This document shows, one piece after another, positions 5,146-61,507 of a DNA stretch of 64,000 bases (its first letter is position 1; every line of letters starts with the position of its first letter). The stretch is taken from positions 9,884 through 73,883 of the IMG/VR virus record IMGVR_UViG_3300009104_000012; one strand, 5' to 3'. The position numbers and the translations under genes are program-made. The notes under the pieces were generated by a model. That model saw only the letters and a list, made by a program, of their open reading frames with translations. It did not search any database and was not told the origin of the DNA. The stretch comes from a virus.

Positions 5146-6999
5146 TTATATGTTCATTTTAAATACTTTATACCAAGCTGCAAATGTAGCTATTGTAAAT
5201 AACTCCTTTTGAGATTTTTGACCTGCGTTTGGATGAACAACAGGATCACCTTTTTCATTTACATCTACTTTCCAATTCTTGTTTAACATATATTTATCAT
5301 CAATTTCGGAAGTAGTATATTCAAAAATATTTTGAATATCTTTATTTTTCATAAGACTTCTAAAATATTCTTTTAAAGGTGTACTATCAGGTGCTGGTTG
5401 TGTCATCTTTCCAATTATACCTTCGTCTGTAGGAAATCTCCAACCAGTTTTATCTCTTTCTAATATTTGTTTTGGTAATCTTTTATAGTATGCTGTCTTT
5501 AGTAATGGTTTATTATGAAAAGCCCAATTTTCTTCTAAAAACTTTTTATTTACTTTAACTCTACCAGGAATAGACCTTACAAAATCTCTAAAAGTTCTAT
5601 TCATAAATGGAAATCTTCCTTCCATACTAAATCTCATACCTAACTTATCGTTTCTTATTAAAAAATCTTCTGCTAATGTATTTAAACATTCTATGTACAT
5701 CAAATCATTTAATTTATCACCTTGTAAACCACCTTTAGGTAACCAACTATCAAGATACTCTATTTGGTCTTTATGAGTTGCCCATAATTCCTTATTATTT
5801 AATATCCTATGATTAGCACATAAACCTTTTAATTTCGTGTGCCAAGGAAATTGTTCAGCTGGTAAATTTACTCCTAATCTATGATGTTTATATCCACATA
5901 ATAATTCATCACCACCATCACCACTTAAAGTCACCGTAATATCATTTTCTGAAATCATTTTATTTGTAGAATAATAAACTGGTAAACTTTTTGCTTGTCT
6001 AGGTTCCTCTAATGCTTCCATTGTATTTTCAAATTCATTAACATAATCTTGTTCAGGAAATCTAATTTCTTGATGGTTACCACCATACAAATCTGAAAGA
6101 TAAGCTGCTAATTTAGCGTCTTCATTTAATCTGCTACCTCGGAAATATGTTAGAAAACTTGATGAAAAGGTATTAGGTTTTGTTTTTAAGTGTTGTGTCA
6201 TTTCATATAATATAGAAGAGCTATCAATACCACCACTTAAAAATAAACCAATCTTTCTACGACCCATTAAGGTTTGTTTTACTGCTTGATTTAATTTAAC
6301 TCTCACCATATCCGAAACATCACCAGGAGACTTTATTGAATTATCTATTTTAATTGGAATATTATTAATATTTGTGGATACTTTCTTATCTGTAATTACA
6401 TTTATTTCAACAACTTCACCAGGTACTAATTTCTTTATACTTTTAAATAAAGTTAAATAACCTGCATTATAACCTTGTTTGTAATATTGTCTAAATCCTT
6501 CTTTATCTACTTTTCTTGGAAATCCTATTTCTAACAAACTTTTAATTTCGGAAGAAAATGCTAACTTACCTTGAATATAACCATAATAGAGTGGTTTCGT
6601 TCCATTACTATCTCTAGCAATAATCAAATTTTGTGTTTTTTTGTTATAAGCTGCAAAAGCAAACATTCCATCTAATTCATTAATAAAGTCTTTTCCTTTT
6701 TGGTCTAAACCAACTATTAATGTTTCGGTATCTGTATCTGTTTGAAATTGATGTTTTAATGAATCGTTTAATTCTTTATAATTGTAAATTTCGCCGTTAT
6801 AGACTAAAACCCAATCCTTGTAAAACCAAGGTTGTTTTGAATTTTCTACCGTATCTACAATTGATAAAAGATTATGACCTAGTGTAATTTGGTCATTGTG
6901 CCATTTACCATTTCCATCAGGACCTCTATGATGTGCTTGACACAACATTTCGTCCATTTGTCTTTCTGAAGGCCAAAGTATTCCGTGAATTGCACACAT
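5146..6999 (-). CDS. asnB: Asparagine synthase-family glutamine amidotransferase
   Basis: N-terminal Cys2 (MCAI), HRGPD, NGEIYN, LSGGIDSS, SGDGGDE, RNDKLGM. Confidence 0.9.
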   Translation of the reverse strand: MCAIHGILWPSERQMDEMLCQAHHRGPDGNGKWHNDQITLGHNLLSIVDTVENSKQPWFYKDWVLVYNGEIYNYKELNDSLKHQFQTDTDTETLIVGLDQKGKDFINELDGMFAFAAYNKKTQNLIIARDSNGTKPLYYGYIQGKLAFSSEIKSLLEIGFPRKVDKEGFRQYYKQGYNAGYLTLFKSIKKLVPGEVVEINVITDKKVSTNINNIPIKIDNSIKSPGDVSDMVRVKLNQAVKQTLMGRRKIGLFLSGGIDSSSILYEMTQHLKTKPNTFSSSFLTYFRGSRLNEDAKLAAYLSDLYGGNHQEIRFPEQDYVNEFENTMEALEEPRQAKSLPVYYSTNKMISENDITVTLSGDGGDELLCGYKHHRLGVNLPAEQFPWHTKLKGLCANHRILNNKELWATHKDQIEYLDSWLPKGGLQGDKLNDLMYIECLNTLAEDFLIRNDKLGMRFSMEGRFPFMNRTFRDFVRSIPGRVKVNKKFLEENWAFHNKPLLKTAYYKRLPKQILERDKTGWRFPTDEGIIGKMTQPAPDSTPLKEYFRSLMKNKDIQNIFEYTTSEIDDKYMLNKNWKVDVNEKGDPVVHPNAGQKSQKELFTIATFAAWYKVFKMNI

Positions 7000-9845: not shown

Positions 9846-10011
9846 TATCAGGTTCCTCTGCTTCGTTATCTATTTCGTAGCCACAAAACGGACAAGACAA
9901 TGGATCTAAATCCGTCTCTTCATCATTATATACTAACGTATATTTAGATTGACAATTACTGCAATACTTTTTAGTTTTCGTTAATGAAGATGATTCACCG
10001 ATACTTCGCAT
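9817..10011 (-). CDS. Small zinc-ribbon protein
   Basis: CSNC...CPFCG, acidic tail. Confidence 0.65.
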   Translation of the reverse strand: MRSIGESSSLTKTKKYCSNCQSKYTLVYNDEETDLDPLSCPFCGYEIDNEAEEPDNEETEDNWD

Positions 10012-41378: not shown

Positions 41379-42773
41379 TTATTTATTATAGATGTAATGT
41401 TCCTTCTTGTCTATCATTGTTGTATAATAATGTGGTAAACTTCTTATTAAGTTTCTATACTTCCTAAAACCTATAGATTTACCCCAACCCATATAGTCCC
41501 TTATTTGACTTATAGTTACCTGTTTATTATCTTTTATAAACTTTAATAACTTTTCTCTACTTCTTGACTCACCCATAATATCTTTTTTAATTACAGATAA
41601 TCCTTCATCTATCATATTCTCAAAACCTTTTACTCTATTCTTCCAACTATGGACTTTTCTACAATGTTTAAGTGCTAGTTTTGCCTGTTCATTTCTCCAT
41701 TTAGTTGAAGTTATTAAATGTTCAAAATGTTCTACTGCTTCATCTACGGTATTAAAACCAGTTTCTAAATCTCCAAACAATTCTTTTGTCTCACTACCAA
41801 TCTGGTAAACATATGGTACACCTTGACCTAATCCGTCCTGTGAAGACATTGCCCAACGGTTACCACCGTGGAAACCTGCAACACATTTATGTAATTCATC
41901 CAAATATTCTTGTCTATCAGCTGGGCCACCAAATTTAATAAAAGATAAATCATCAAAGTATTTTTTTAATTTTGTTTTAGAAGTTGTAGCGTCTGCCATT
42001 GTTAACCATAACCTAAAATCTGTTCTTTTAGACCTTAACTTTTTAATAATTTGTAAAAACTTTTCCCAACCTCTATAGTTATGCGTTCTATGATTGAACA
42101 CTATATAAGGTCCTGATATTTCTTCTACATCTTTTCTAATTTTATCATCTTCAAATCCTAGATAAACTGGTCTCATTATACCTCTTAACTTATCAATTGT
42201 TTGTTTACTATAATGTTGTTCTGCTTCTGCAAGTGTATCATCTATTTGTGTTTGTGTATTAAAACCACACGCCTTCATTAATAACATACCACTAATATTG
42301 TTATGATAAAAACTTACCAACATATTAGGATTGTTTTCTTTGTTCTCTATCCAATGTGAATAACCAATTACAGGAGAGTCCTGACTATATAAGTTTATCA
42401 TATTATTCATTACATTGGTTGTTTGTTCTGGTAAATGTGAAAACACCAAATCTATTTCCATAATTCTATTGTCTAATATAGTTTTCCAAAAATAGAAATC
42501 ATAATGAGACCTCATAGAATTTGGAAATGTAGGTGTATTAAAAATGTATTGTTTAACATTTGGAAAATCAAACTCTTTACAATGTGATGGCATTGGCATA
42601 TGAAAGAATAAATCTTTTCTCTTCTTGTTTAATTCTTTAATGACATTGGACATTACTAGAACATAACTATCTTTTGATAGTTCTCTTTGTTTAGTAATAT
42701 TAGGTACAACTAATATTTGGTAAATATTTTCTTTGCCTAATGGTTGTTTGTTAAAGAATTTATCTAATGTCAT
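41379..42773 (-). CDS. GT-B fold glycosyltransferase-like protein (candidate DNA-modifying)
   Basis: FSHLPE, YSHW, IVFNHR, Y...L...GF...WAMS..DG...GVP GT-B pattern; C-terminal HTH-like tail. Confidence 0.6.
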   Translation of the reverse strand: MTLDKFFNKQPLGKENIYQILVVPNITKQRELSKDSYVLVMSNVIKELNKKRKDLFFHMPMPSHCKEFDFPNVKQYIFNTPTFPNSMRSHYDFYFWKTILDNRIMEIDLVFSHLPEQTTNVMNNMINLYSQDSPVIGYSHWIENKENNPNMLVSFYHNNISGMLLMKACGFNTQTQIDDTLAEAEQHYSKQTIDKLRGIMRPVYLGFEDDKIRKDVEEISGPYIVFNHRTHNYRGWEKFLQIIKKLRSKRTDFRLWLTMADATTSKTKLKKYFDDLSFIKFGGPADRQEYLDELHKCVAGFHGGNRWAMSSQDGLGQGVPYVYQIGSETKELFGDLETGFNTVDEAVEHFEHLITSTKWRNEQAKLALKHCRKVHSWKNRVKGFENMIDEGLSVIKKDIMGESRSREKLLKFIKDNKQVTISQIRDYMGWGKSIGFRKYRNLIRSLPHYYTTMIDKKEHYIYNK

Positions 42774-43602
42774 TAGCTAATCTCCTTGCACCATAAGTTA
42801 TCATAAAATCTGCACCAGCTCTTTTAAATACTTCGTATGTTTCTCTTAAACTACCAGGCGCACCAATACCTAACCACTCACCCGATACTTGATAAGCACC
42901 ACAAGGTTTGCCTGTTGCTTTCTTTATGCCATAAATTAAATCTATACTTGTCATACCTGGTTTCACCATTAATTCATCTGCACCATCTTGAGCATATTTT
43001 ATAGACCTTTTAATTGCACCTGCTTTATCTGATACATCTAATTGATATGGTCTTTCAATCCCTTTCGGTATCGCCATAGTCTCACGCCAACCTCTATAAA
43101 AAGTAGAACGGAATTTTGTACTATAACTCATCACAGGTATATTACCATCTTTTATTGATTTAATATTCTTAACCGTATTATCTTGACAATCACTTGGTGC
43201 TATTGTAGCACCTGAAGCTGTGTAAATATCTTTTGCTTGTTGTAATAATAATTTATCTGTACGCTCTTGGTCTCCTATAATGCAACAATGTCCGTCCTGT
43301 GTATAAGAACATAAACAAATATCTACATTTAATTTAATAGGTAAAGTTGAAAGACTAGCTGCTACTACACATACTTGGTCAAATTTATGGTCATCAATTC
43401 CTTCTCCAGGTCTCCAACTATCTGATTTTTCTCCTAGTTTAAATTCTGGAACATAGAATAATAAAAACTCTTTAACACCTAGGTCTATATCTTTCTTAAC
43501 TCTTTCGTTAATTTCTTTCCAAGCATTAAAAATTTTATTATCTTCACCTAATCCAGTATCTTTTGTTCTAGGTCCAGCAAATATTGGTTGTATTAATCTC
43601 AT
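42760..43602 (-). CDS. hemB: Divergent porphobilinogen synthase (ALA dehydratase)-family protein
   Basis: LIQPIF, DICLCSYTQDGHC, IAPSD, MSYSTKF, YQLD, GADELMVKPG, AYQVSGE, KRAGAD..ITY. Confidence 0.85.
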   Translation of the reverse strand: MRLIQPIFAGPRTKDTGLGEDNKIFNAWKEINERVKKDIDLGVKEFLLFYVPEFKLGEKSDSWRPGEGIDDHKFDQVCVVAASLSTLPIKLNVDICLCSYTQDGHCCIIGDQERTDKLLLQQAKDIYTASGATIAPSDCQDNTVKNIKSIKDGNIPVMSYSTKFRSTFYRGWRETMAIPKGIERPYQLDVSDKAGAIKRSIKYAQDGADELMVKPGMTSIDLIYGIKKATGKPCGAYQVSGEWLGIGAPGSLRETYEVFKRAGADFMITYGARRLANDIR

Positions 43603-44708
43603 CTTATTATATCAATCTTGTCCATAGTCTGATTGTTCCATACTTCGTTTTCAGTTCTTAATTTATTATCTGTTTTTAATTTGTCATATCTTTTTGTTGC
43701 TTTATTCTTCCACCATTTTACAATATTTTCTAATTCAAATTTATCATAGTTTTCACCTTTAATTAACTTATCGGTCTTACCTAATAATATATCTTTGACA
43801 TTTGAGAAACCATAATCTGACATATAAAATCTTTTTTGTGTTGTAATACCTTCTGCCTTTGCCATAGATTTAACAAAGGTATCATAATCACCACTACCTT
43901 TTAATGCTCTCTTAACCATACCAATCATTGCTGTGGTAATTTTTAACTTTCTACTAGAGGCACCTTTATGTACAATATCATCACCTATAATATCTTCAAT
44001 ATAACTTTTTAAATTAAAATAAGTTTCTTCACCTAAAGTTGGTACAAATTTTGACATTGTATCTCCTTTATATCTTAAATATGGTTTCAGTCCATCATAC
44101 ATAGATGTACCTTTTATATTACCATATAAACTTGTAGTTTCAAACAAACAAAATTCTGTATCATATTTCTTATTTAGCATTTCTCTTACTTTATGAGAAC
44201 AACAAATCAATGCCAATAGTTTACCACCAAGATAATTAAAACCAAATGGTTGTACTGGTACTATATTGAAACCCATTATGGCCCTTTTATTAAAGATAGG
44301 TAAATCTGGAGTACCACCCAAATAATTATTTCTTGGTTTAGAATTGATAATAGGCGAACCTAATTTAATAAATCCTATAATAGTATTTGAAGTATTATCT
44401 TTAACAACTAATTTTAATTCTTTACCTGGCGCCTGGTCTGGAGAGAAACTAGCAATCATTTCCAACATTGTATTAAAAGTGGAGTGTTGCATTTCAACCA
44501 CTTGTATATCCATATCTTCAGGTTTAATATTATAATCATTAAACATATCATCTTCCAATCCAAAACCTGGTAGTGATGGTGGAATATTCTTAACTCTTTC
44601 AATCTTTCTCAATCTAAAATAGTCATCTATACGATTCAAACTATCAAAATAATCTCTAAAGATTTTAGAGCAATGTAATGCTTGTTCAACGTTTAGGGTC
44701 TTCATCAT
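43599..44708 (-). CDS. DUF4338/DruA-like (Mom-related GNAT) protein
   Basis: PGKEL...GFIKLGSP, IVPVQPFGFNYLGGKLLALIC, ETTSLYG, SMYDGL. Confidence 0.75.
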   Translation of the reverse strand: MMKTLNVEQALHCSKIFRDYFDSLNRIDDYFRLRKIERVKNIPPSLPGFGLEDDMFNDYNIKPEDMDIQVVEMQHSTFNTMLEMIASFSPDQAPGKELKLVVKDNTSNTIIGFIKLGSPIINSKPRNNYLGGTPDLPIFNKRAIMGFNIVPVQPFGFNYLGGKLLALICCSHKVREMLNKKYDTEFCLFETTSLYGNIKGTSMYDGLKPYLRYKGDTMSKFVPTLGEETYFNLKSYIEDIIGDDIVHKGASSRKLKITTAMIGMVKRALKGSGDYDTFVKSMAKAEGITTQKRFYMSDYGFSNVKDILLGKTDKLIKGENYDKFELENIVKWWKNKATKRYDKLKTDNKLRTENEVWNNQTMDKIDIIR

Positions 44709-44796
44709 TCCACTTCTTTAATAACCATATCGGTAATATATAAACTAATACCATAAATAATATAAAAATTAATCCTACTCCTATCATTTCCATCAT
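44686..44796 (-). CDS. Small membrane protein (36 aa)
   Basis: Manual translation MMEMIGVGLIFILFMVLVYILPIWLLKKWNDEDPKR; ATGA-coupled. Confidence 0.45.
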   Translation of the reverse strand: MMEMIGVGLIFILFMVLVYILPIWLLKKWNDEDPKR

Positions 44797-45335
44797 AATT
44801 CATTCCCCCAATTATCCCAACCATCTACTTGTTGTCGGGCAAATAGTTCTATTCTTGGCAGATCACCTGCCAACTCTATAATTCTTGACCTAACCTCATC
44901 TGGTTTTCTACTATGTTCTCTTCGTTCAGCAACCACTAATCTATCTACATTGGTACCAACTCTATGTGGTTTTCCTTTTGTTGCCAAGATACATATTTCA
45001 GGATTGGCTCTTGTCCATAATCCTGTACCTTTAAAATAATAATTCTTAATTCTATTCTTGTTAGTTTTTATCCAATAAAATCCTACCGTCTTATATTTAA
45101 AACCCCATTTCTCAACAATTGGTATTTGTTTATGTAATAATGGGTCTGTACACCACATAAACAATATACAATCTTTATCTGCAATATCTCCAACTGGTAA
45201 ATCTTCAATCTCTTTCATTGTCATTGTTGGATAATGGTGTATAGGATTTGTTTGTGCCTTATCATTATTCCAATTCTGAAAATGCCAAGGAGGATCGGCA
45301 TAAATTATATTATATTTTTTCTTACTTAATTCCAA
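44793..45335 (-). CDS. MT-A70-family N6-adenine methyltransferase
   Basis: IIYADPPW, LFMW, WGFKYKT, TRANPE, HSRKP, RIELFAR, GWDNWGNE. Confidence 0.92.
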   Translation of the reverse strand: MELSKKKYNIIYADPPWHFQNWNNDKAQTNPIHHYPTMTMKEIEDLPVGDIADKDCILFMWCTDPLLHKQIPIVEKWGFKYKTVGFYWIKTNKNRIKNYYFKGTGLWTRANPEICILATKGKPHRVGTNVDRLVVAERREHSRKPDEVRSRIIELAGDLPRIELFARQQVDGWDNWGNEL

Positions 45336-47800
45336 AAGTCCTCCAAACTCGCCACTCGTTCATACTTCCAACCAATAGAGTTTAATATAAATCTCAATGG
45401 GTCTAAAAATGTTTTTTCAAATTGAGTTGTATAATCTATATACTCTTGCAACTTAAATTCTCTAGGTAATTTTGTAAGATAACTAATAACACCATACTTA
45501 AATGGATTAGGTTCTTTTAATAATATAAACTTAATCTTATCTCCTTCTTGTATCAATGGATATTTAGCAGTAAGTTTAAGTTGTTTTAAATAATGATTGT
45601 ATATTAAAGACCCTTTAACGTGTATTGGACAACTCTTCTGAAATATATTACTAGCGTCTGAATATTTTTTAAGATTATTACAAGACCTTGGAAAAGCAAT
45701 CGCTTCTGGTGGTAGTCCTTCAAATTCATTTTTAAACTTATCAACAAAATTAATTAAATCTGGTTCTTCCTTCTTCATAATAATATCAATTGCTTCTTTA
45801 ATTCTTTTTCTACAAATTGCTGGTGTTGAAGATTTAACTGCCTCAATTCCCATAATTTTCATTTTAGGTTCAGCATATCTAACGCCTTCACTATCATATA
45901 CATTTAACATATATCTTTTCTTTGATACCCATATACCTTTATCAGCAATAACTTCTCTTGCCATTTCCATTTTTTGGTCAAAAGCATTTGTATATTCTGC
46001 AAGTTCTTTATAACACTTATCAATATATGGTTCAAATTGTTTTTCACACGCCTTGTTTAAAAATTCAACTACTTGGTCTTTTGATTTATTACCACATATT
46101 TTTTCTACTAACTTATCTAAACACACATAAATTGAATCTGTATCAGACGCAACTATATAATCGTGGTCATCTGTTTTTAATAAATGATTTAAATAATCGT
46201 TCATCTTATTCTCAATAAATTTAATAACATACTGACCTCCAGTAGTTATCGCTGTCGCTTGTCTTACATCATAGTATCTGAAAAATTGGTTACCAATAGC
46301 ACCATAGGCACTATTCAATGCAATCTTTCTTGACCATTGTATATTATGGAATCTACTTACCTTTTTTAATAAAGACTTCTCTTTTGTTTTTTCATATTCT
46401 TGTCTTGCTTTAATTTCTTTTTGTTTAAATTTAACTCGTTCTTTATACATTGTCTCCATCATATTAGCAAGAAAACCTTGACTATCGGTTTTAAACAACG
46501 CACCATTTGGAGTTATACACGCACCTTCTTTTTTAAGATAACTTAAATCTGATTTTTTATTTAATAAATTACTTACAGAAACTCCATTACCTTTCATACC
46601 AATAATTTTTTCAGGTGAAATATTATATTGCATAATTAAATGTGGATACAAACTATTTAAATCAAATGACACTACCCACTTATGCATACCAACCTGTGGA
46701 TCTTTTACATATGCACCAATATATTTTGTATCTTTACTATGTTCTTCTCTAGGTGGTACAGCAATCTTATTTTTTAATAAGTGATTATAAATTAAAGTAT
46801 CCCAAGTTCTAACTTGACTAAACACATCTGAATAATTTACTTTAGCGTCATACGCCATAGTTAAGACTAGTTCAATTAAACCAAGTTTATCTTCTAGTCT
46901 ATCCACTATTTCAACATCTTGAATATTATAATCTATAAAAGATTGTAAATCTTTAGTGTACCATTCTTTAAATGTATCATAAGGGTTATCATCTTTCTTT
47001 TCGCCTAGTTCTACTTGACCAATCCAATCCAATCTATAACTCTCTTGTCTTGTTGGAATATATTTTGTATATAAATCCAAATAATCTAACATTGCAATAC
47101 CAACCACATTGTATACCGTTTGTGGTCTACCTCTTACTTCAACCGTTTCTTGTTCAACTATATTCCAAGGTGATAATTTTCTTATTACTTTTTCATCTGT
47201 TAATAATTTAATTCTATTGCATAGATATGGTAAATCAAAAAACTTTGTATTCCAACCTGTAATAACATCTGGATAATTTTTCATCCAGAATTTCATAAAC
47301 TCCATTATTAAAACTTTTTCATTACTACATTTAATATAGGTTACATCTTTTCTATCTGTTTTAAAATCACCAATACCCCAAGTTATAATCTGTTTGTTAG
47401 AGGCATTTTTAACCGTAATACATATTAACTCTTCTATAGGATTTTGTACATCTGGAAATCCATCTTCACAGGTTGTTTCTATATCTAATGTAAAAATGGA
47501 AATAAATTCTTTAGACCATTCAATTGTTTCTGGATATTCAGCTGAAATATATTGATATTGAAATCTATCTAAACCAAATAATGGAGCACCACTATATGAT
47601 TTTTTAAATTCTCTTGCTCTTGAAATACTATTAAAGTTTACAGGTTTTAAATTTTGACCTTGTAAAGTTTTCCAATCTCCATTACCTAATACATAAAGAG
47701 TTGGATTAAAATCTATCTTCTCTTGGAAAGACTTGTTTCTTTCAATACCACGGACTAGTAATTTACCTCTATGTTCAATAACTGATTTATAAAAATTCAC
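45326..47800 (-). CDS. T4 gp43-like family B DNA polymerase
   Basis: DIET exonuclease, SFDLNSLYP, KIALNSAYG, SDTDS, C-terminal clamp motif SLEDFW. Confidence 0.97.
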   Translation of the reverse strand: MNFYKSVIEHRGKLLVRGIERNKSFQEKIDFNPTLYVLGNGDWKTLQGQNLKPVNFNSISRAREFKKSYSGAPLFGLDRFQYQYISAEYPETIEWSKEFISIFTLDIETTCEDGFPDVQNPIEELICITVKNASNKQIITWGIGDFKTDRKDVTYIKCSNEKVLIMEFMKFWMKNYPDVITGWNTKFFDLPYLCNRIKLLTDEKVIRKLSPWNIVEQETVEVRGRPQTVYNVVGIAMLDYLDLYTKYIPTRQESYRLDWIGQVELGEKKDDNPYDTFKEWYTKDLQSFIDYNIQDVEIVDRLEDKLGLIELVLTMAYDAKVNYSDVFSQVRTWDTLIYNHLLKNKIAVPPREEHSKDTKYIGAYVKDPQVGMHKWVVSFDLNSLYPHLIMQYNISPEKIIGMKGNGVSVSNLLNKKSDLSYLKKEGACITPNGALFKTDSQGFLANMMETMYKERVKFKQKEIKARQEYEKTKEKSLLKKVSRFHNIQWSRKIALNSAYGAIGNQFFRYYDVRQATAITTGGQYVIKFIENKMNDYLNHLLKTDDHDYIVASDTDSIYVCLDKLVEKICGNKSKDQVVEFLNKACEKQFEPYIDKCYKELAEYTNAFDQKMEMAREVIADKGIWVSKKRYMLNVYDSEGVRYAEPKMKIMGIEAVKSSTPAICRKRIKEAIDIIMKKEEPDLINFVDKFKNEFEGLPPEAIAFPRSCNNLKKYSDASNIFQKSCPIHVKGSLIYNHYLKQLKLTAKYPLIQEGDKIKFILLKEPNPFKYGVISYLTKLPREFKLQEYIDYTTQFEKTFLDPLRFILNSIGWKYERVASLEDFWN

Positions 47801-48602
47801 TTAAATTGCCTTCCGCTTTATACTTTGATATGTTCTTCCTATTATACACCATTTCTTTCGATAAGTCAAATGGCATTTTCTTTGTTTCTTTGTACGAAGA
47901 AGTTCCACTCATCCACGACTTCACCCACCAAATCAAATCGGTATGTTTTGGGTATTTTAAGTTCCAAGTAACCGTTGACTTTTTTAAATTTTTTCGGTCT
48001 TTCGGTGTCATTGGATAGATATATCTAAATTGTTTACCCTTCACTCGGTTCAATTTTAATTCTTTAAGTTGTTTTGGGTTTGGTCTATGACCGTATTTTA
48101 AACCTTCTTTATTTGGTAATTGTCCTTGTAAAGTTCTAGGGTGTACTTTCTCTCCTGTTTCGGTAACATAAGTATCTGTTATAGAAAATCCACCATATAA
48201 AAAATTAGCTGCCTGATATACATAGCCAGGTTTGCCCACAATACCATCTGCCCAAGTATAAAGATATTTAACATCTGTATTTTGTTTTAACCATTTAATT
48301 GATAGTGATAGTAATTGAGATTCAGAATTTCTAGGCATAGAATCATCCATACACATCTTGCCTATTTCTAGGTAATCTTTTGTATCTAATTTTGGAAATA
48401 ATTTTTGTATAGTATGTTTTGGTCTTGTACCCCAACCAAAGGTAATAACTCCAACTAATGTATCATATGAATCTACTGGAAACTTTTTGTTTCTTACAAA
48501 GCAACCTAGATAATGCTTAGTGAGTCTCGGCATAACAGCCGAGTAATGGCGTTTAGCAACGAATTCAGCTGCTGTTATTTTGTGTAAAGGTTTTATTATC
48601 AT
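47787..48602 (-). CDS. Mom-family adenine-modifying GNAT enzyme
   Basis: KRHYS, GVITFG, EIGKMC...PRNSESQLLS, YTWAD, GYVYQAANFLYGG, KFRYIY-like motif. Confidence 0.85.
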   Translation of the reverse strand: MIIKPLHKITAAEFVAKRHYSAVMPRLTKHYLGCFVRNKKFPVDSYDTLVGVITFGWGTRPKHTIQKLFPKLDTKDYLEIGKMCMDDSMPRNSESQLLSLSIKWLKQNTDVKYLYTWADGIVGKPGYVYQAANFLYGGFSITDTYVTETGEKVHPRTLQGQLPNKEGLKYGHRPNPKQLKELKLNRVKGKQFRYIYPMTPKDRKNLKKSTVTWNLKYPKHTDLIWWVKSWMSGTSSYKETKKMPFDLSKEMVYNRKNISKYKAEGNLSEFL

Positions 48603-54470: not shown

Positions 54471-54980
54471 TTAGTGTAGTTTATGTTTTAAAGTTTCAAG
54501 TATTTTATCTGGTAGAGTTTCAACATATGGGTCTCCGTCTATACCTTGGTCATTAATACCAGGCTCTTCGAACCATTGCTCAACCACTCCATCATTTACA
54601 ACCATTGCATAACGCCAAGAACGCATACCAAACCCTAGGTGTGTTTTGTTTATTAACATACCCATACGTCTAGTAAACCAACCAGAACCATCTGGTATCA
54701 TCTTAACATTATTAATTTGTTGGTCTTCAGCCCAAGCATTCATCACAAACGAATCGTTTACTGATATACAATAAACATCATTACAACCTTTAGTGATAAA
54801 CTCGTCATAGAGTCTTTCAAATTCAGGTAGTTGTTTTGTTGAACAAGTTGGAGTAAAAGCACCAGGCAATGAGAACACTACTACTTTTTTACCATCAAAG
54901 TAATCTTCTGTAGTAACGTTTTTCCACTTACCTAATTCTCTAACTTTAAATACCACACTTGGTAGTTTTTTTCCAATCAT
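54471..54980 (-). CDS. Peroxiredoxin (Prx5 type)
   Basis: SLPGAFTPTCS, SVNDSFVM.AW, RSWRYAM. Confidence 0.93.
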   Translation of the reverse strand: MIGKKLPSVVFKVRELGKWKNVTTEDYFDGKKVVVFSLPGAFTPTCSTKQLPEFERLYDEFITKGCNDVYCISVNDSFVMNAWAEDQQINNVKMIPDGSGWFTRRMGMLINKTHLGFGMRSWRYAMVVNDGVVEQWFEEPGINDQGIDGDPYVETLPDKILETLKHKLH

Positions 54981-54993
54981 AATTTCCTCTTTT

Positions 54994-55067
54994 TGGAGCG
55001 GACACTTGGTACTGCCCCAAGGTCTCGAAGTTGGTAACCTCGCATAATTCTTTTATACTATGTCCGC
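54994..55067 (-). tRNA. Atypical tRNA-Gly, anticodon ACC, encoded CCA
   Basis: GCGGACA TA GTAT AAAAGA ATTAT G CGAGG TTACCAA CTTCG AGAC CTTGG GGCAGTA CCAAG TGTCCGC T CCA: 7-bp acceptor, 5-bp anticodon and T stems, U73. Confidence 0.9.
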
Positions 55068-55074
55068 AATTATT

Positions 55075-55103
55075 ATAATAACATTTCCTACCAATATTGT
55101 CAA
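55075..55103 (-). promoter_or_regulatory. sigma70 promoter directly upstream of the tRNA
   Basis: TTGACA-N17-TATTAT with TG extension; -10 box ends 7 nt before tRNA G1. Confidence 0.75.
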
Positions 55104-55108
55104 GTCTC

Positions 55109-55154
55109 CTAGGGAGCAGTAGGGTCCACGCTAGCTTCCCCTACCACTCACTAG
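55109..55154 (-). ncRNA. Candidate small hairpin RNA
   Basis: GAGTGGTAGGG/CCCTACTGCTC stem with 14-nt loop GAAGCTAGCGTGGA; own promoter; GC-rich; no ORF. Confidence 0.5.
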
Positions 55155-55156
55155 CC

Positions 55157-55185
55157 ATTATAACGTAAAAAAGGCGGAGAGTCAA
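55157..55185 (-). promoter_or_regulatory. sigma70 promoter embedded in the hsp20 terminator
   Basis: TTGACT-N17-TATAAT. Confidence 0.75.
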
Positions 55186-55196
55186 GTCTCCGCCTT
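55167..55196 (-). terminator. Intrinsic terminator after hsp20
   Basis: AAGGCGGAGA-CTTGAC-TCTCCGCCTT-TTTT. Confidence 0.85.
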
Positions 55197-55215: not shown

Positions 55216-55680
55216 TTACTTAACGTCTATAGTTTTAAGTTTCATTTCTTCTGGAATTATCTTTTCCATAGAAACTTTTAAAAGACCATCTTTCAGCTCT
55301 GCACCTTTGACTTTTACATCATTAGCGATTGTGAAAGCTCTTTTAAAGTATCTTTTTGAAATACCTTTATGTACCATCTTCTCGTCTTTTTTAGCGTCAG
55401 CACCAACTGAATCGTTGACTACAGACTTAACTTTAGACTCGATAGTTAACATACCGTTTTCTACCAATACATTAATGTCTTTCTTATTGAAGCCAGCTAA
55501 TGCTACTTCAATATCGTAAGTGTTCTTACCAGACTTAACTATATTGTATGGTGGATAAGACGGTTGTATATCGTTGATAAAATCGTCATCAAACATTGAC
55601 CCAAAATGGTCAAACACGTCATCAAATCCTACGGATAATGGTCTTAATTTATTAAAAATTGATAATGCTCTATTGGTCAT
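55216..55680 (-). CDS. Small heat-shock protein Hsp20 (IbpA-like)
   Basis: VGFD, SYPPYNI, IEVALAGF, HKGISKR, GAELKDGLL; real start MTNRAL after AGGAGG. Confidence 0.93.
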   Translation of the reverse strand: MTNRALSIFNKLRPLSVGFDDVFDHFGSMFDDDFINDIQPSYPPYNIVKSGKNTYDIEVALAGFNKKDINVLVENGMLTIESKVKSVVNDSVGADAKKDEKMVHKGISKRYFKRAFTIANDVKVKGAELKDGLLKVSMEKIIPEEMKLKTIDVK

Positions 55681-55684
55681 AATT

Positions 55685-55708
55685 AACCTCCTTTTATTAA
55701 GCAAAGTT
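55685..55708 (-). promoter_or_regulatory. ROSE-like RNA thermometer
   Basis: AACUUUGCUU-AAUAA-AAGGAGGUU: UUGCU pairs over the SD with a bulged G. Confidence 0.7.
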
Positions 55709-55787
55709 ATCGTTTCCGAGAGCCCACAATGGCACTCTCTAAATGGTATATAATCATTATTTATAAGATTACAAGCCATTATAATCA

Positions 55788-55807
55788 GGGGGTGCCTTAG
55801 CACCCCC
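55788..55807. repeat. GC-rich hairpin repeat copy 1
   Basis: GGGGGTGC-CTTA-GCACCCCC; 19/20 identical to 56316-56335. Confidence 0.8.
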
Positions 55808-60196: not shown

Positions 60197-61507
60197 CTAT
60201 CGGCCCACCTGGACTAGATATTTCTGCTTGGTTGATGGCCAATCCATATAAATTATATCATCATAAAAATGCGATTCGCTGGATACTCTATTAGTTTTAA
60301 TAAGATTATCTATTCGTTTTCTAGCGTATTTGGATTTCCATAATTCTGATAATGCTTCTGTAGTATTATCAAATGCTGGTATTAATTTATCTTCGGTTAT
60401 CTCTTCTCTTAAAAATTCATTAGTATTAGTATATAATTGACCAAAGTATATGCCTCTAGCGTGTTCAGATTTAATTAAATTCTTTGGTATAGATAGTCTA
60501 TTAAATGTAAAGTTATGAGACCTATTTCTATGGTCTCTTTTATGTGGTTGTCCACTAGGTTTCTTTGCAAAATACCATTCAAAGTATTTTCTAGTATGAT
60601 TTTTTAACAACCAATTCTGTATCATTTTTCTAGTTGTTAATTCAGGTTCATATGATACACTACCTGCTGTCCAACCCATTTTCTTCCAATGTTTTAATCT
60701 ATCGTATTGTGATAATGGTATTGCTTTTGTTTTACCATATAAAGATGTAGTGGTTACACCAACCAATGTATCTCCATATTGTTTCTTCCAAGTTTTAGCA
60801 ACTACATCTGAAAGACATAATAATGCTAACAATTTACCACCTACTAAATTATAACCTAAAGGTTGTACTGGTACAATGGTACTACCGATTGTTGTATGAT
60901 TAATCATCTTTTCAGTTTTTCTTTTTCTGTCCCAACCAATATGTTTATCTCTTGGTGTTAAATCTAAAAAGTCAGAAGACATACAAGTTATGCCTAAAAA
61001 TTTACCTGTCTTTTTGTCTTGTATAATAAAGTTTAAATTTCTACCTATATTACTATTGTTTTTCATAGTAGATAAAAATGTTCTTAATGCATTCCATATA
61101 GCAGGCATTTTCTTACCTGTAATAGATTTTAAAGTATCATCATCTGTCCATATAACCTCTGGCTCTAAATTACTATACTCCATTGGGTCTGTTGGATTCC
61201 AAAAATTGTTTTTTACTTCTTGAATTAAAGCACCTTGTTCGGCGTCTTTTAGGGCAGGTTTATCATCAAAGAAACTATTAGTTTCTACGGTTGGATATCT
61301 ATTATGTACTTCACACCATTTTTGATATAAAGTATATTCTTTTACATCCATTGCTGATACAAAGGACAAATCTTTTATTATTGTCTCTCTTAATGTATCA
61401 TCTTCTATAGTAGGTATCTTATCCAAATCTGTATTCTTTTGGAATTCAGACCATTGGTCCTCTATGAATTTAATGTATTCTGGTGAATCTGTACTTTGTG
61501 CTGTCAT
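60197..61507 (-). CDS. DUF4338/DruA-like (Mom-related GNAT) protein
   Basis: IGRNL, RDKHIGW, IVPVQPLGYNLVGGKLLALL, W...YGD.L..VTTTSLYG, SQYDRL..WKKMG.TAG; start at MTAQ downstream of promoter. Confidence 0.8.
   Translation of the reverse strand: MTAQSTDSPEYIKFIEDQWSEFQKNTDLDKIPTIEDDTLRETIIKDLSFVSAMDVKEYTLYQKWCEVHNRYPTVETNSFFDDKPALKDAEQGALIQEVKNNFWNPTDPMEYSNLEPEVIWTDDDTLKSITGKKMPAIWNALRTFLSTMKNNSNIGRNLNFIIQDKKTGKFLGITCMSSDFLDLTPRDKHIGWDRKRKTEKMINHTTIGSTIVPVQPLGYNLVGGKLLALLCLSDVVAKTWKKQYGDTLVGVTTTSLYGKTKAIPLSQYDRLKHWKKMGWTAGSVSYEPELTTRKMIQNWLLKNHTRKYFEWYFAKKPSGQPHKRDHRNRSHNFTFNRLSIPKNLIKSEHARGIYFGQLYTNTNEFLREEITEDKLIPAFDNTTEALSELWKSKYARKRIDNLIKTNRVSSESHFYDDIIYMDWPSTKQKYLVQVGR

Follow-up and report, generated by a model that had tools for sequence, protein, structure and literature searches.

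We identified a glycine tRNA gene with the anticodon ACC, tRNA-Gly(ACC), on the minus strand of a 64,000-nt stretch of viral DNA (positions 9,884 to 73,883 of the IMG/VR virus record IMGVR_UViG_3300009104_000012, hereafter the window). Judged from its sequence, predicted fold, alignment and covariation, it is a genuine, selected and previously unannotated phage gene that combines a co-varying elbow with a rare anticodon, and by the same comparisons it is an ortholog of the T4-type tRNA-Gly(UCC) in which the D loop and the T arm have been altered. As to its function, we lean towards a translational tRNA of T4-type descent that reads GGU codons. The source is a 73.9-kb IMG/VR viral contig, about 40% complete, of a T4-like myovirus whose nearest isolates are the Pelagibacter phages Mosig and HTVC008M (family Kyanoviridae). 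Coordinates of all main features are collected in Table 1.

Structure of the tRNA gene and its detection

The reverse complement of window positions 54994-55067 folds as a 74-nt cloverleaf with a predicted energy of -23.9 kcal/mol (z = -2.56 against shuffled sequences). Its acceptor stem GCGGACA/UGUCCGC starts with G1-C72, C2-G71 and G3-C70 and is followed by U73 and an encoded CCA, the 5-bp anticodon stem carries the loop UUACCAA with U33 and a purine at position 37, and the variable loop has 4 nt. In the D arm, a 3-bp stem and a U13.U22 pair close the 7-nt loop AAAAGAA, from which G18 has been lost and in which G19 is kept, while the T stem CUUGG/CCAAG (C49-G65, U50-A64, U51-A63) closes the loop GGCAGUA, which places G54-G55-C56 at the elbow. 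The gene has the cloverleaf of bacterial and phage elongator tRNA-Gly (7-bp acceptor stem, 5-bp anticodon and T stems), and its elbow departs from the canonical one (G18G19; U54-U55-C56). Most of this had been described in a first-pass annotation made from the sequence alone, whose coordinates, strand, stems, U73, CCA, anticodon and T loop all agree with a direct reading of the sequence; it had given the D loop as AAAAGA without G18G19, which is right for the loss of G18, but the loop is one nucleotide longer and retains G19.

The same annotation had anticipated poor scores from tRNA finders, as was indeed the case. ARAGORN reported zero tRNAs across the entire window and none at the locus of tRNA-Gly(ACC) with relaxed thresholds either, and the Rfam tRNA model (RF00005) gave no tRNA match at its gathering score or at E <= 10. 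In the literature we found no account of this tRNA-Gly(ACC) or of any phage tRNA elbow with G55 and A18; the pelagimyophage papers called tRNAs with tRNAscan-SE and make no mention of tRNA-Gly(ACC).

Conservation and descent

Scanning viral contigs with the 5' half of the tRNA gene yielded 68 distinct sequences, 66 of which, including that of the window, were aligned. Across these 66 distinct homologs, which come from marine T4-like, pelagimyophage-type contigs, 99.5% of stem cells were paired; 12 of the 20 stem pairs showed compensatory change, with 226 cells altered on both sides, and none of 500 shuffles matched the observed covariation values, slid-register controls pairing at 34-51%. The anticodon stem varied at all five pairs and four of the five T-stem pairs covaried. 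The identity set of the bacterial glycyl-tRNA synthetase (GlyRS), namely G1-C72, C2-G71, G3-C70, U73, C35 and C36, was invariant in 66/66 while other stem pairs varied, as was pair 4-69, and the anticodon loop was invariant except at position 34 (32, 33 and 35-38 fixed). The claim of an intact GlyRS identity set is thereby upheld, and homolog covariation, which had been proposed as a check, revealed no random decay. Within the D loop, the AAAAGAA of the window stands against AAAAGUA or AAAAGCA in relatives (family consensus AAAAGUA). At canonical position 20 (window 55049; position 19 by sequence count), the window has A and all 65 other aligned members have U or C.

The site of the gene in pelagimyophage genomes is fixed, with hsp20 on one side and the gp45 sliding-clamp operon on the other. 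In Mosig (MT647606), a homolog lies at this site; its acceptor and anticodon stems have changed in a compensatory way and its downstream gene is a different one. No tRNA-Gly homolog was found in HTVC008M. The Mosig homolog (L001:3524-3619) is annotated as Mosig_000011, a 31-aa hypothetical protein, which is probably a spurious open reading frame (ORF) call on an RNA gene.

Alignment with the phage T4 tRNA-Gly shows that the acceptor stem, D stem, U73, CCA and length are common to the rewired family, and a continuous sequence family joins the canonical to the rewired T4-type tRNA-Gly. The T4 tRNA-Gly(UCC) (NC_000866, 72291-72364) is likewise 74 nt long, with an equal D stem, U73, an encoded CCA and the same anticodon-loop frame; its acceptor stem GCGGAUA/UAUCCGC is identical in the Mosig copy and differs from that of the window at one compensated pair. 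The two differ where T4 has AAUGGUA (G18G19), UUCGAUU, G51-C63 and UCC, and the window has AAAAGAA, GGCAGUA, U51-A63 and ACC. Three distinct members with A18 and G55 (L260, L264 and L283) have a 6-nt anticodon loop, UCCCAA, instead of UUUCCAA.

A rewired elbow

The elbow was surveyed in 173 distinct T4-type tRNA-Gly sequences with either kind of D loop. GG D loops were found with U55 in 85/88 sequences, and AG D loops carried G55 in 77/81, the remaining four reading T there, which we took as parsing slips; G19 and C56 were constant throughout. T loops of the A18 group follow NGCRNUA (GGCAGUA, UGCAAUA, UGCAUUA, CGCAAUA, AGCGUUA), and loops such as GUCAGUA or AUCGUUA accompany G18. When the tree is built from the columns outside the elbow, positions 18 and 55 change five times each, always jointly; only two of these changes fall on supported branches, so that a formal test is powerless, and the independent pairs (2-5) are too few for significance in a coupling test.

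This covariation suggests that an A18-G55 contact replaces the G18-pseudouridine 55 (Psi55) contact while G19-C56 is kept. The first-pass annotation had called the elbow degenerate and had also argued that both loops were changed together by selection rather than decay. Since 18 and 55 swap in concert and G19 and C56 are retained, the elbow is better described as rewired, through a defined exchange of G18-U55 for A18-G55 that leaves a T loop also used in transfer-messenger RNA (tmRNA) and in other phage tRNAs; the argument for selection is borne out by the survey and the tree, and the word degenerate has to be dropped. The exchange removes U55 and, in the window, also U54, the targets of TruB- and TrmA-type enzymes respectively. 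The near-universal G18-Psi55 contact would thus have a natural co-varying alternative that recurs across phage tRNA identities.

Detection follows the elbow: ARAGORN found 2/68 A18 members versus 69/70 G18 members of the T4-type tRNA-Gly. A phage tRNA family is therefore nearly invisible to standard finders, and pelagimyophage genomes with few or no reported tRNAs, as well as Mosig_000011, need re-annotation.

A T arm shared with tmRNA and with other phage tRNAs

The sole Rfam match to tRNA-Gly(ACC) was to the T arm of alpha_tmRNA (RF01849; consensus loop GGCgGUA), at 11.4 bits against a gathering score of 50. Membership in alphaproteobacterial tmRNA was rejected on this score and on G3-C70, the full anticodon arm and the lack of an ORF part. 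The alphaproteobacterial two-piece tmRNA resembles the window element in its GGCRGUA loop on a G-C-closed 5-bp stem, followed by the acceptor strand and CCA, and differs in its alanine identity (G3.U70), its lack of an anticodon arm and its need for SmpB, where the window element has a full cloverleaf and glycine identity. tmRNA acts on the ribosome, and a GGCRGUA T loop should be compatible with ribosome use because it is the consensus in the alphaproteobacterial tmRNA. The A18-G55 elbow in this way matches the tmRNA T loop of the class of the host, SAR11, the ocean's commonest bacterium, and offers a clean system for studying what the elbow contact and its modifications do. G has been described at the equivalent of U55 in Caulobacter tmRNA, and GG in that of the Reclinomonas mitochondrion (PMC1168896).

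The 15-mer UUGGGGCAGUACCAA occurs in many viral contigs, within cloverleaves of anticodons GAA, UUU, UUG, UAC, GUA, UGG, GAU, CAU and UCC that have different acceptor stems and D loops usually of the AG rather than the GG kind. Such GGCAGUA-arm tRNAs (Phe, Lys, Gln, Val, Tyr, Pro, Ile, CAU) sit within large phage tRNA clusters, where ARAGORN misses them. With a strict parser we found at most one per cluster, present in 10/20 clusters, and none duplicated an anticodon called by ARAGORN; in the cluster of L070, 28 called tRNAs cover 19 amino acids and the hidden GGCAGUA-arm tRNA supplies the missing Tyr. Because these tRNAs supply what their sets would otherwise lack, elbows of the G55 type are likely to permit decoding, and phage tRNA sets scored as incomplete may be complete. 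Among the 120 matches to UUGGGGCAGUACCAA listed for bacterial genomes, none had a tRNA-like context and all looked coding or chance.

Two further kinds of gene carry this arm. In L003, L029, L067, L072 and L109, the GGCAGUA T arm belongs to an odd tRNA-like gene with a canonical GG D loop on which ARAGORN is silent, and whose 3' acceptor strand pairs better with a segment of the anticodon region than with the 5' end (e.g. L067, minus strand, ~5563-5660 of the reversed locus); it is a candidate type II tRNA, permuted tRNA or mini-helix within another tRNA. The CAU tRNA-like genes of L009, L073, L081, L017 and L115 have, next to the GGCAGUA arm, either a D arm reduced to a 4-bp stem and a 4-nt loop or a lengthened anticodon stem and, going by these sequence features, are another hidden noncanonical class.

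The ACC anticodon and glycine codon usage

In the A18 family, 55 sequences have U as the wobble base, 22 have A and one has G, and ACC is absent among the 88 G18 sequences of the elbow survey. ACC occurs with many different stems and arises about five times on the tree. The first-pass annotation was right to call it unusual, GGU and GGC being read by a G34 tRNA in all three kingdoms (PMC6720975). Unmodified A34 pairs best with U (PMC11066159), and the tRNAs known to carry it, natural rarities and engineered orthogonal tRNAs, share with the phage gene a wobble A outside the TadA-edited Arg-ACG context (PMC11066159); the phage ACC genes differ from them in that they occur naturally and are conserved, one phage family having 22 distinct ACC sequences. 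They are thus a case of a tRNA-Gly with A34 that is conserved in nature although cells shun this anticodon. No gene of the TadA-like or dCMP-deaminase family was found on the 74-kb contig, which carries little weight at about 40% completeness. ACC is not confined to the rewired family: at L486:8781-8854, on a contig with Mom, ARAGORN calls a tRNA-Gly(ACC) whose elbow is canonical (GG/UUC).

Glycine codons in the phage genome are GGU (64.8%), GGA (25.1%), GGC (7.4%) and GGG (2.7%). The shares of GGU and GGA were 71% and 12% at ACC loci versus 59% and 23% at UCC loci (Mann-Whitney p about 5e-7, before allowing for relatedness). This GGU-rich usage supports a role of tRNA-Gly(ACC) in translation.

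Predicted EF-Tu binding

Binding of elongation factor Tu (EF-Tu) was predicted with the Schrader-Uhlenbeck model of three T-stem base pairs, using the per-pair values of PMC3239215 (Table 2) and a reference of -10.1 kcal/mol back-calculated from Table 3 of the same paper. The predicted term was -9.1 kcal/mol for tRNA-Gly(ACC) and -11.0 for the T4 tRNA-Gly; bacterial tRNA-Gly classes have means from -10.8 to -11.0, and the cell-wall tRNA-Gly of staphylococci comes to -9.5. In this model the gene lacks the tight T stem of bacterial tRNA-Gly, and the weak EF-Tu determinants that had been claimed for it hold as a model prediction. All 60 scorable A18 sequences were shifted towards weak binding (mean +1.06, none below +0.1), and pair 51-63 is never G-C in the A18 family and mostly G-C in the G18 group. 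The T-stem pairs U50-A64 and U51-A63, which the first-pass annotation had listed, do occur in the window, but the family does not conserve them; what its members have in common is the lack of G51-C63. Equally weak values are normal for Phe, Lys, Gln, Ile and other identities that use the GGCAGUA arm, among which Gly is exceptional.

A Mom-family gene and the non-proteogenic tRNA-Gly of staphylococci

A gene of the Mom family lies 6.4 kb from tRNA-Gly(ACC) and is a candidate user of Gly-tRNA-Gly. The serine at Mu Mom S124 is putatively conserved in the phage protein and R111 is replaced by K, on an inferred numbering offset. Mu Mom was reported in 2026 to move glycine from Gly-tRNA-Gly onto adenine in double-stranded DNA, and takes all three E. 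coli tRNA-Gly isoacceptors (PMC13219725). The window genome is similar in encoding a Mom-family enzyme together with a tRNA of glycine identity; Mu differs in using host tRNA-Gly of any isoacceptor, with no dedicated phage tRNA described, and co-occurrence of tRNA and Mom is not obligate in the related phages.

The other precedent is the non-proteogenic tRNA-Gly of staphylococci, which has a TGC/TGT T loop (G55), lacks pseudouridine, binds EF-Tu weakly and is not bound by ribosomes (PMC7826273). The NP1-3 tRNA-Gly of S. aureus and S. epidermidis, donors for FmhB, FemA and FemB (PMC7826273; PMC3239215), share with the phage gene G55 and hence the absence of Psi55, an altered D loop and the GlyRS identity set, as well as a T stem weak for EF-Tu, which is both predicted and measured there (-9.5) and a model value for the phage (-9.1). 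The phage tRNA differs in keeping G19 and C56, in its 18-55 covariation and in its T4-type lineage, and the phage has no Fem-type transferase, the candidate user Mom being missing from most relatives. In Mosig the tRNA-Gly is present and the Mom gene absent; in Melnitz (complete) and G016 (171 kb, 100% complete) Mom is present and a T4-type tRNA-Gly absent, G016 having a small ORF at the site syntenic with the tRNA. Mom was found in 0/13 other tRNA-bearing contigs (16-47 kb, 9-32% complete; the positive control worked) and on 0/28 ACC loci. A dedicated transferase that is always present, as in the staphylococcal system, is therefore not what the phage tRNA and Mom pair displays.

Close Mom homologs were located in 80 marine phage loci, and in 22 of them a tRNA gene stands on the strand of the Mom ORF at a distance of 7-20 nt: 12 of these are ordinary tRNA-Ala(UGC) genes (L452-L463, L477, L480, L481) and 10 are tRNA-Gly genes (L458, L461, L464-L469, L506, L507), two of the latter with an elbow of the A18/G55 type. 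Because 12 of the 22 are ordinary tRNA-Ala, the adjacency would partly reflect insertion into tRNA arrays.

Weighing the explanations

Under the translational reading, tRNA-Gly(ACC) would be transcribed from its own early-type promoter with a start at G1 or one base before it, be charged by the host GlyRS through the intact bacterial identity set, and be used on the ribosome, where A34 would form a Watson-Crick pair with GGU, the dominant glycine codon of the phage, and, if unmodified, would read GGC and the remaining GGN codons more weakly; the tertiary contact G18-Psi55 would be swapped for the co-varying A18-G55 with G19-C56 retained, which would not amount to damage. We favour it because the gene is homologous to T4 tRNA-Gly, its stems are kept by compensation, its elbow covaries and its promoter position is conserved, and because GGU is dominant, the identity set is invariant, the same T arm serves in tmRNA and in tRNAs that complete decoding sets, and Mosig has the tRNA without Mom. 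Several observations weigh on the other side. The predicted EF-Tu binding is about 1.7-1.9 kcal/mol weaker than that of bacterial tRNA-Gly and weaker even than the staphylococcal value, and G55 is also a hallmark of the staphylococcal non-proteogenic tRNA-Gly (PMC7826273). The wobble base switches 17 times across the T4-type tRNA-Gly tree, with five U/A switches within the A18 family, and such frequent change could mean a lack of constraint; the link between ACC and codon usage comes down to 3-5 independent contrasts and loses significance when relatedness is taken into account, and the window itself has 25% GGA. Finally, the pelagimyophage tRNA-Thr (L028, L471, L472) is called by ARAGORN and so has a standard T loop, which leaves Gly as the only tRNA known to be rewired among the few pelagimyophage contigs showing a second tRNA.

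G55, a weak EF-Tu stem and a Mom gene together raise the question whether viruses partition aminoacyl-tRNA between translation and DNA modification. The tRNA would then be a non-ribosomal glycine carrier, charged by GlyRS and kept from EF-Tu and the ribosome by its elbow and weak T stem as a private pool for Mom or another GNAT-type enzyme. That the Mu enzyme takes Gly-tRNA-Gly as co-substrate, that a well-matched Mom gene with the putative S124 serine lies nearby, that the predicted EF-Tu term falls with the staphylococcal tRNAs and that 10/80 Mom loci have an adjacent tRNA-Gly all speak for it, and we nevertheless consider it unlikely, though well short of negligible: tRNA and Mom separate in both directions, Mom is missing from the further tRNA-bearing contigs and ACC loci, Mu Mom accepts every host isoacceptor and so needs no special tRNA, most Mom-adjacent tRNAs are tRNA-Ala, G19-C56 is kept where the staphylococcal tRNAs lose it, and the same T arm is found in tRNAs that complete decoding sets. 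The wider proposal that the A18/G55 family with weak T stems is a virus-encoded non-proteogenic tRNA feeding tRNA-dependent DNA hypermodification, through Mom here and perhaps GNAT-like enzymes in relatives, is similarly doubtful; if true, DNA chemistry would for the first time be seen to have an aminoacyl-tRNA supply of its own, and the G55 solution of the staphylococci would have been invented a second time, independently. A translation-competent spare that escapes defence because, lacking U54 and U55, it would be attacked inefficiently by a host toxin or nuclease directed at tRNA-Gly or the T loop during infection, is a more speculative idea to which we give little credence; evasion of an anticodon nuclease was among the alternatives of the first-pass annotation. 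The tRNA-Lys and tRNA-Tyr of phage T5 reportedly protect a particular tRNA attacked by the host, and a single GGCAGUA-arm tRNA per cluster whose identity varies by phage (Phe, Lys, Tyr, Gln, Val, Pro, Ile, CAU, Gly) is the pattern expected from such protection; against this, no such nuclease or toxin was identified in our analysis, the idea being pure inference, and to our knowledge the reported escape variants alter the anticodon loop or stem, not the elbow. It is very improbable that the cloverleaf acts in cis as a tRNA-like leader, a 5' processing or stabilising module for the peroxiredoxin and gp45 mRNA: the next start codon does follow after 13 nt with no terminator between, the promoter stands directly before the tRNA and tRNAs of related phages abut ORFs by 7-20 nt, but the downstream gene differs among relatives, and a processing signal would have no need of a conserved anticodon loop, GlyRS identity set, U73 and CCA. 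Decay of a T4-type tRNA-Gly into a pseudogene, which the silence of ARAGORN and Rfam might suggest, is effectively refuted by the covariation data, the stems being kept by compensatory change in 66 variants, the loop changes coordinated and recurrent, and the promoter conserved.

Promoter and genomic neighbourhood

The minus strand reads, in order, hsp20, a terminator, a promoter-driven hairpin, a second promoter, the tRNA, peroxiredoxin, gp45, gp44 and the remaining replication module (Table 1). A promoter matching at least 9 of 12 positions precedes homologs of the tRNA in 52/94 distinct contexts, and its -10 element ends 7-8 nt before G1 in 48/52. With the -10 element at this distance, transcription would probably start at or adjacent to the mature 5' end of the tRNA. 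Because no terminator intervenes between the CCA of tRNA-Gly(ACC) and the start of the peroxiredoxin gene, the two are probably co-transcribed. The gene 3' of the tRNA varies among relatives: peroxiredoxin in the window, gp45 in Mosig and others elsewhere.

Table 1. Features of the window, in window coordinates
Feature	Coordinates	Strand	Remarks
tRNA-Gly(ACC) gene	54994..55067	minus	74 nt, CCA encoded; T4 tRNA-Gly ortholog with A18/G55 elbow, from sequence, fold, alignment and covariation
Anticodon ACC	55033..55035	minus	inside loop UUACCAA (55037..55031)
D loop AAAAGAA	55048..55054	minus	A at position 18, single G at position 19
T arm CUUGG-GGCAGUA-CCAAG	55005..55021	minus	T loop 55016..55010; G55 replaces U55
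Sigma-70-type promoter TTGACA-17-TATTAT, TG extension	55075..55103	minus	11/12 matches; -10 ends 7 nt before G1
Bidirectional terminator hairpin	55171..55196	.	ends hsp20, splits hsp20 from the tRNA unit
hsp20 gene	55803..55216	minus	upstream of tRNA-Gly(ACC)
Peroxiredoxin gene	54471..54980	minus	Redoxin, E 3.9e-28; starts 13 nt past CCA
Mom-family gene	47787..48602	minus	Pfam PF25680, E 9.5e-52; PDB 8bv8 Mom, E 2.7e-16; candidate Gly-tRNA-Gly user
DruA/DUF4338-like genes	43599-44708; 60197-61507		two proteins in the window

The promoter of the hairpin, TTGACT-17-TATAAT (55185..55157, minus), is embedded in the hsp20 terminator and is followed, just upstream of the tRNA promoter, by the G+C-rich 46-nt hairpin itself (55154..55109, minus; -24.9 kcal/mol, z -2.5). 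The Mosig intergenic region has no counterpart of this hairpin with its promoter, and the hairpin could be a small RNA or a regulatory element.

The two DruA/DUF4338-like proteins were tried as relatives of Mom and rejected: BLASTP found nothing and hhalign of shallow profiles gave a probability of 0.3%. An AlphaFold model reached a predicted local distance difference test score (pLDDT) of 57, too poor for a structure search, and the one lead from the ESM Atlas, a weak one, was to a GNAT-like family of phages (score 0.83). DruA-like genes are also present in HTVC008M, which lacks the tRNA-Gly, and no link to the tRNA was found. Close relatives of the DruA-like gene number more than 3500, and several of these lie on phage contigs some 150 kb long. 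Auxiliary genes are scattered through the replication module (window 42760-45335 and 60197-61507); besides the two DruA/DUF4338-like genes they include an ALAD (porphobilinogen synthase) homolog at 42760-43602 and an MT-A70 adenine methyltransferase at 44793-45335.

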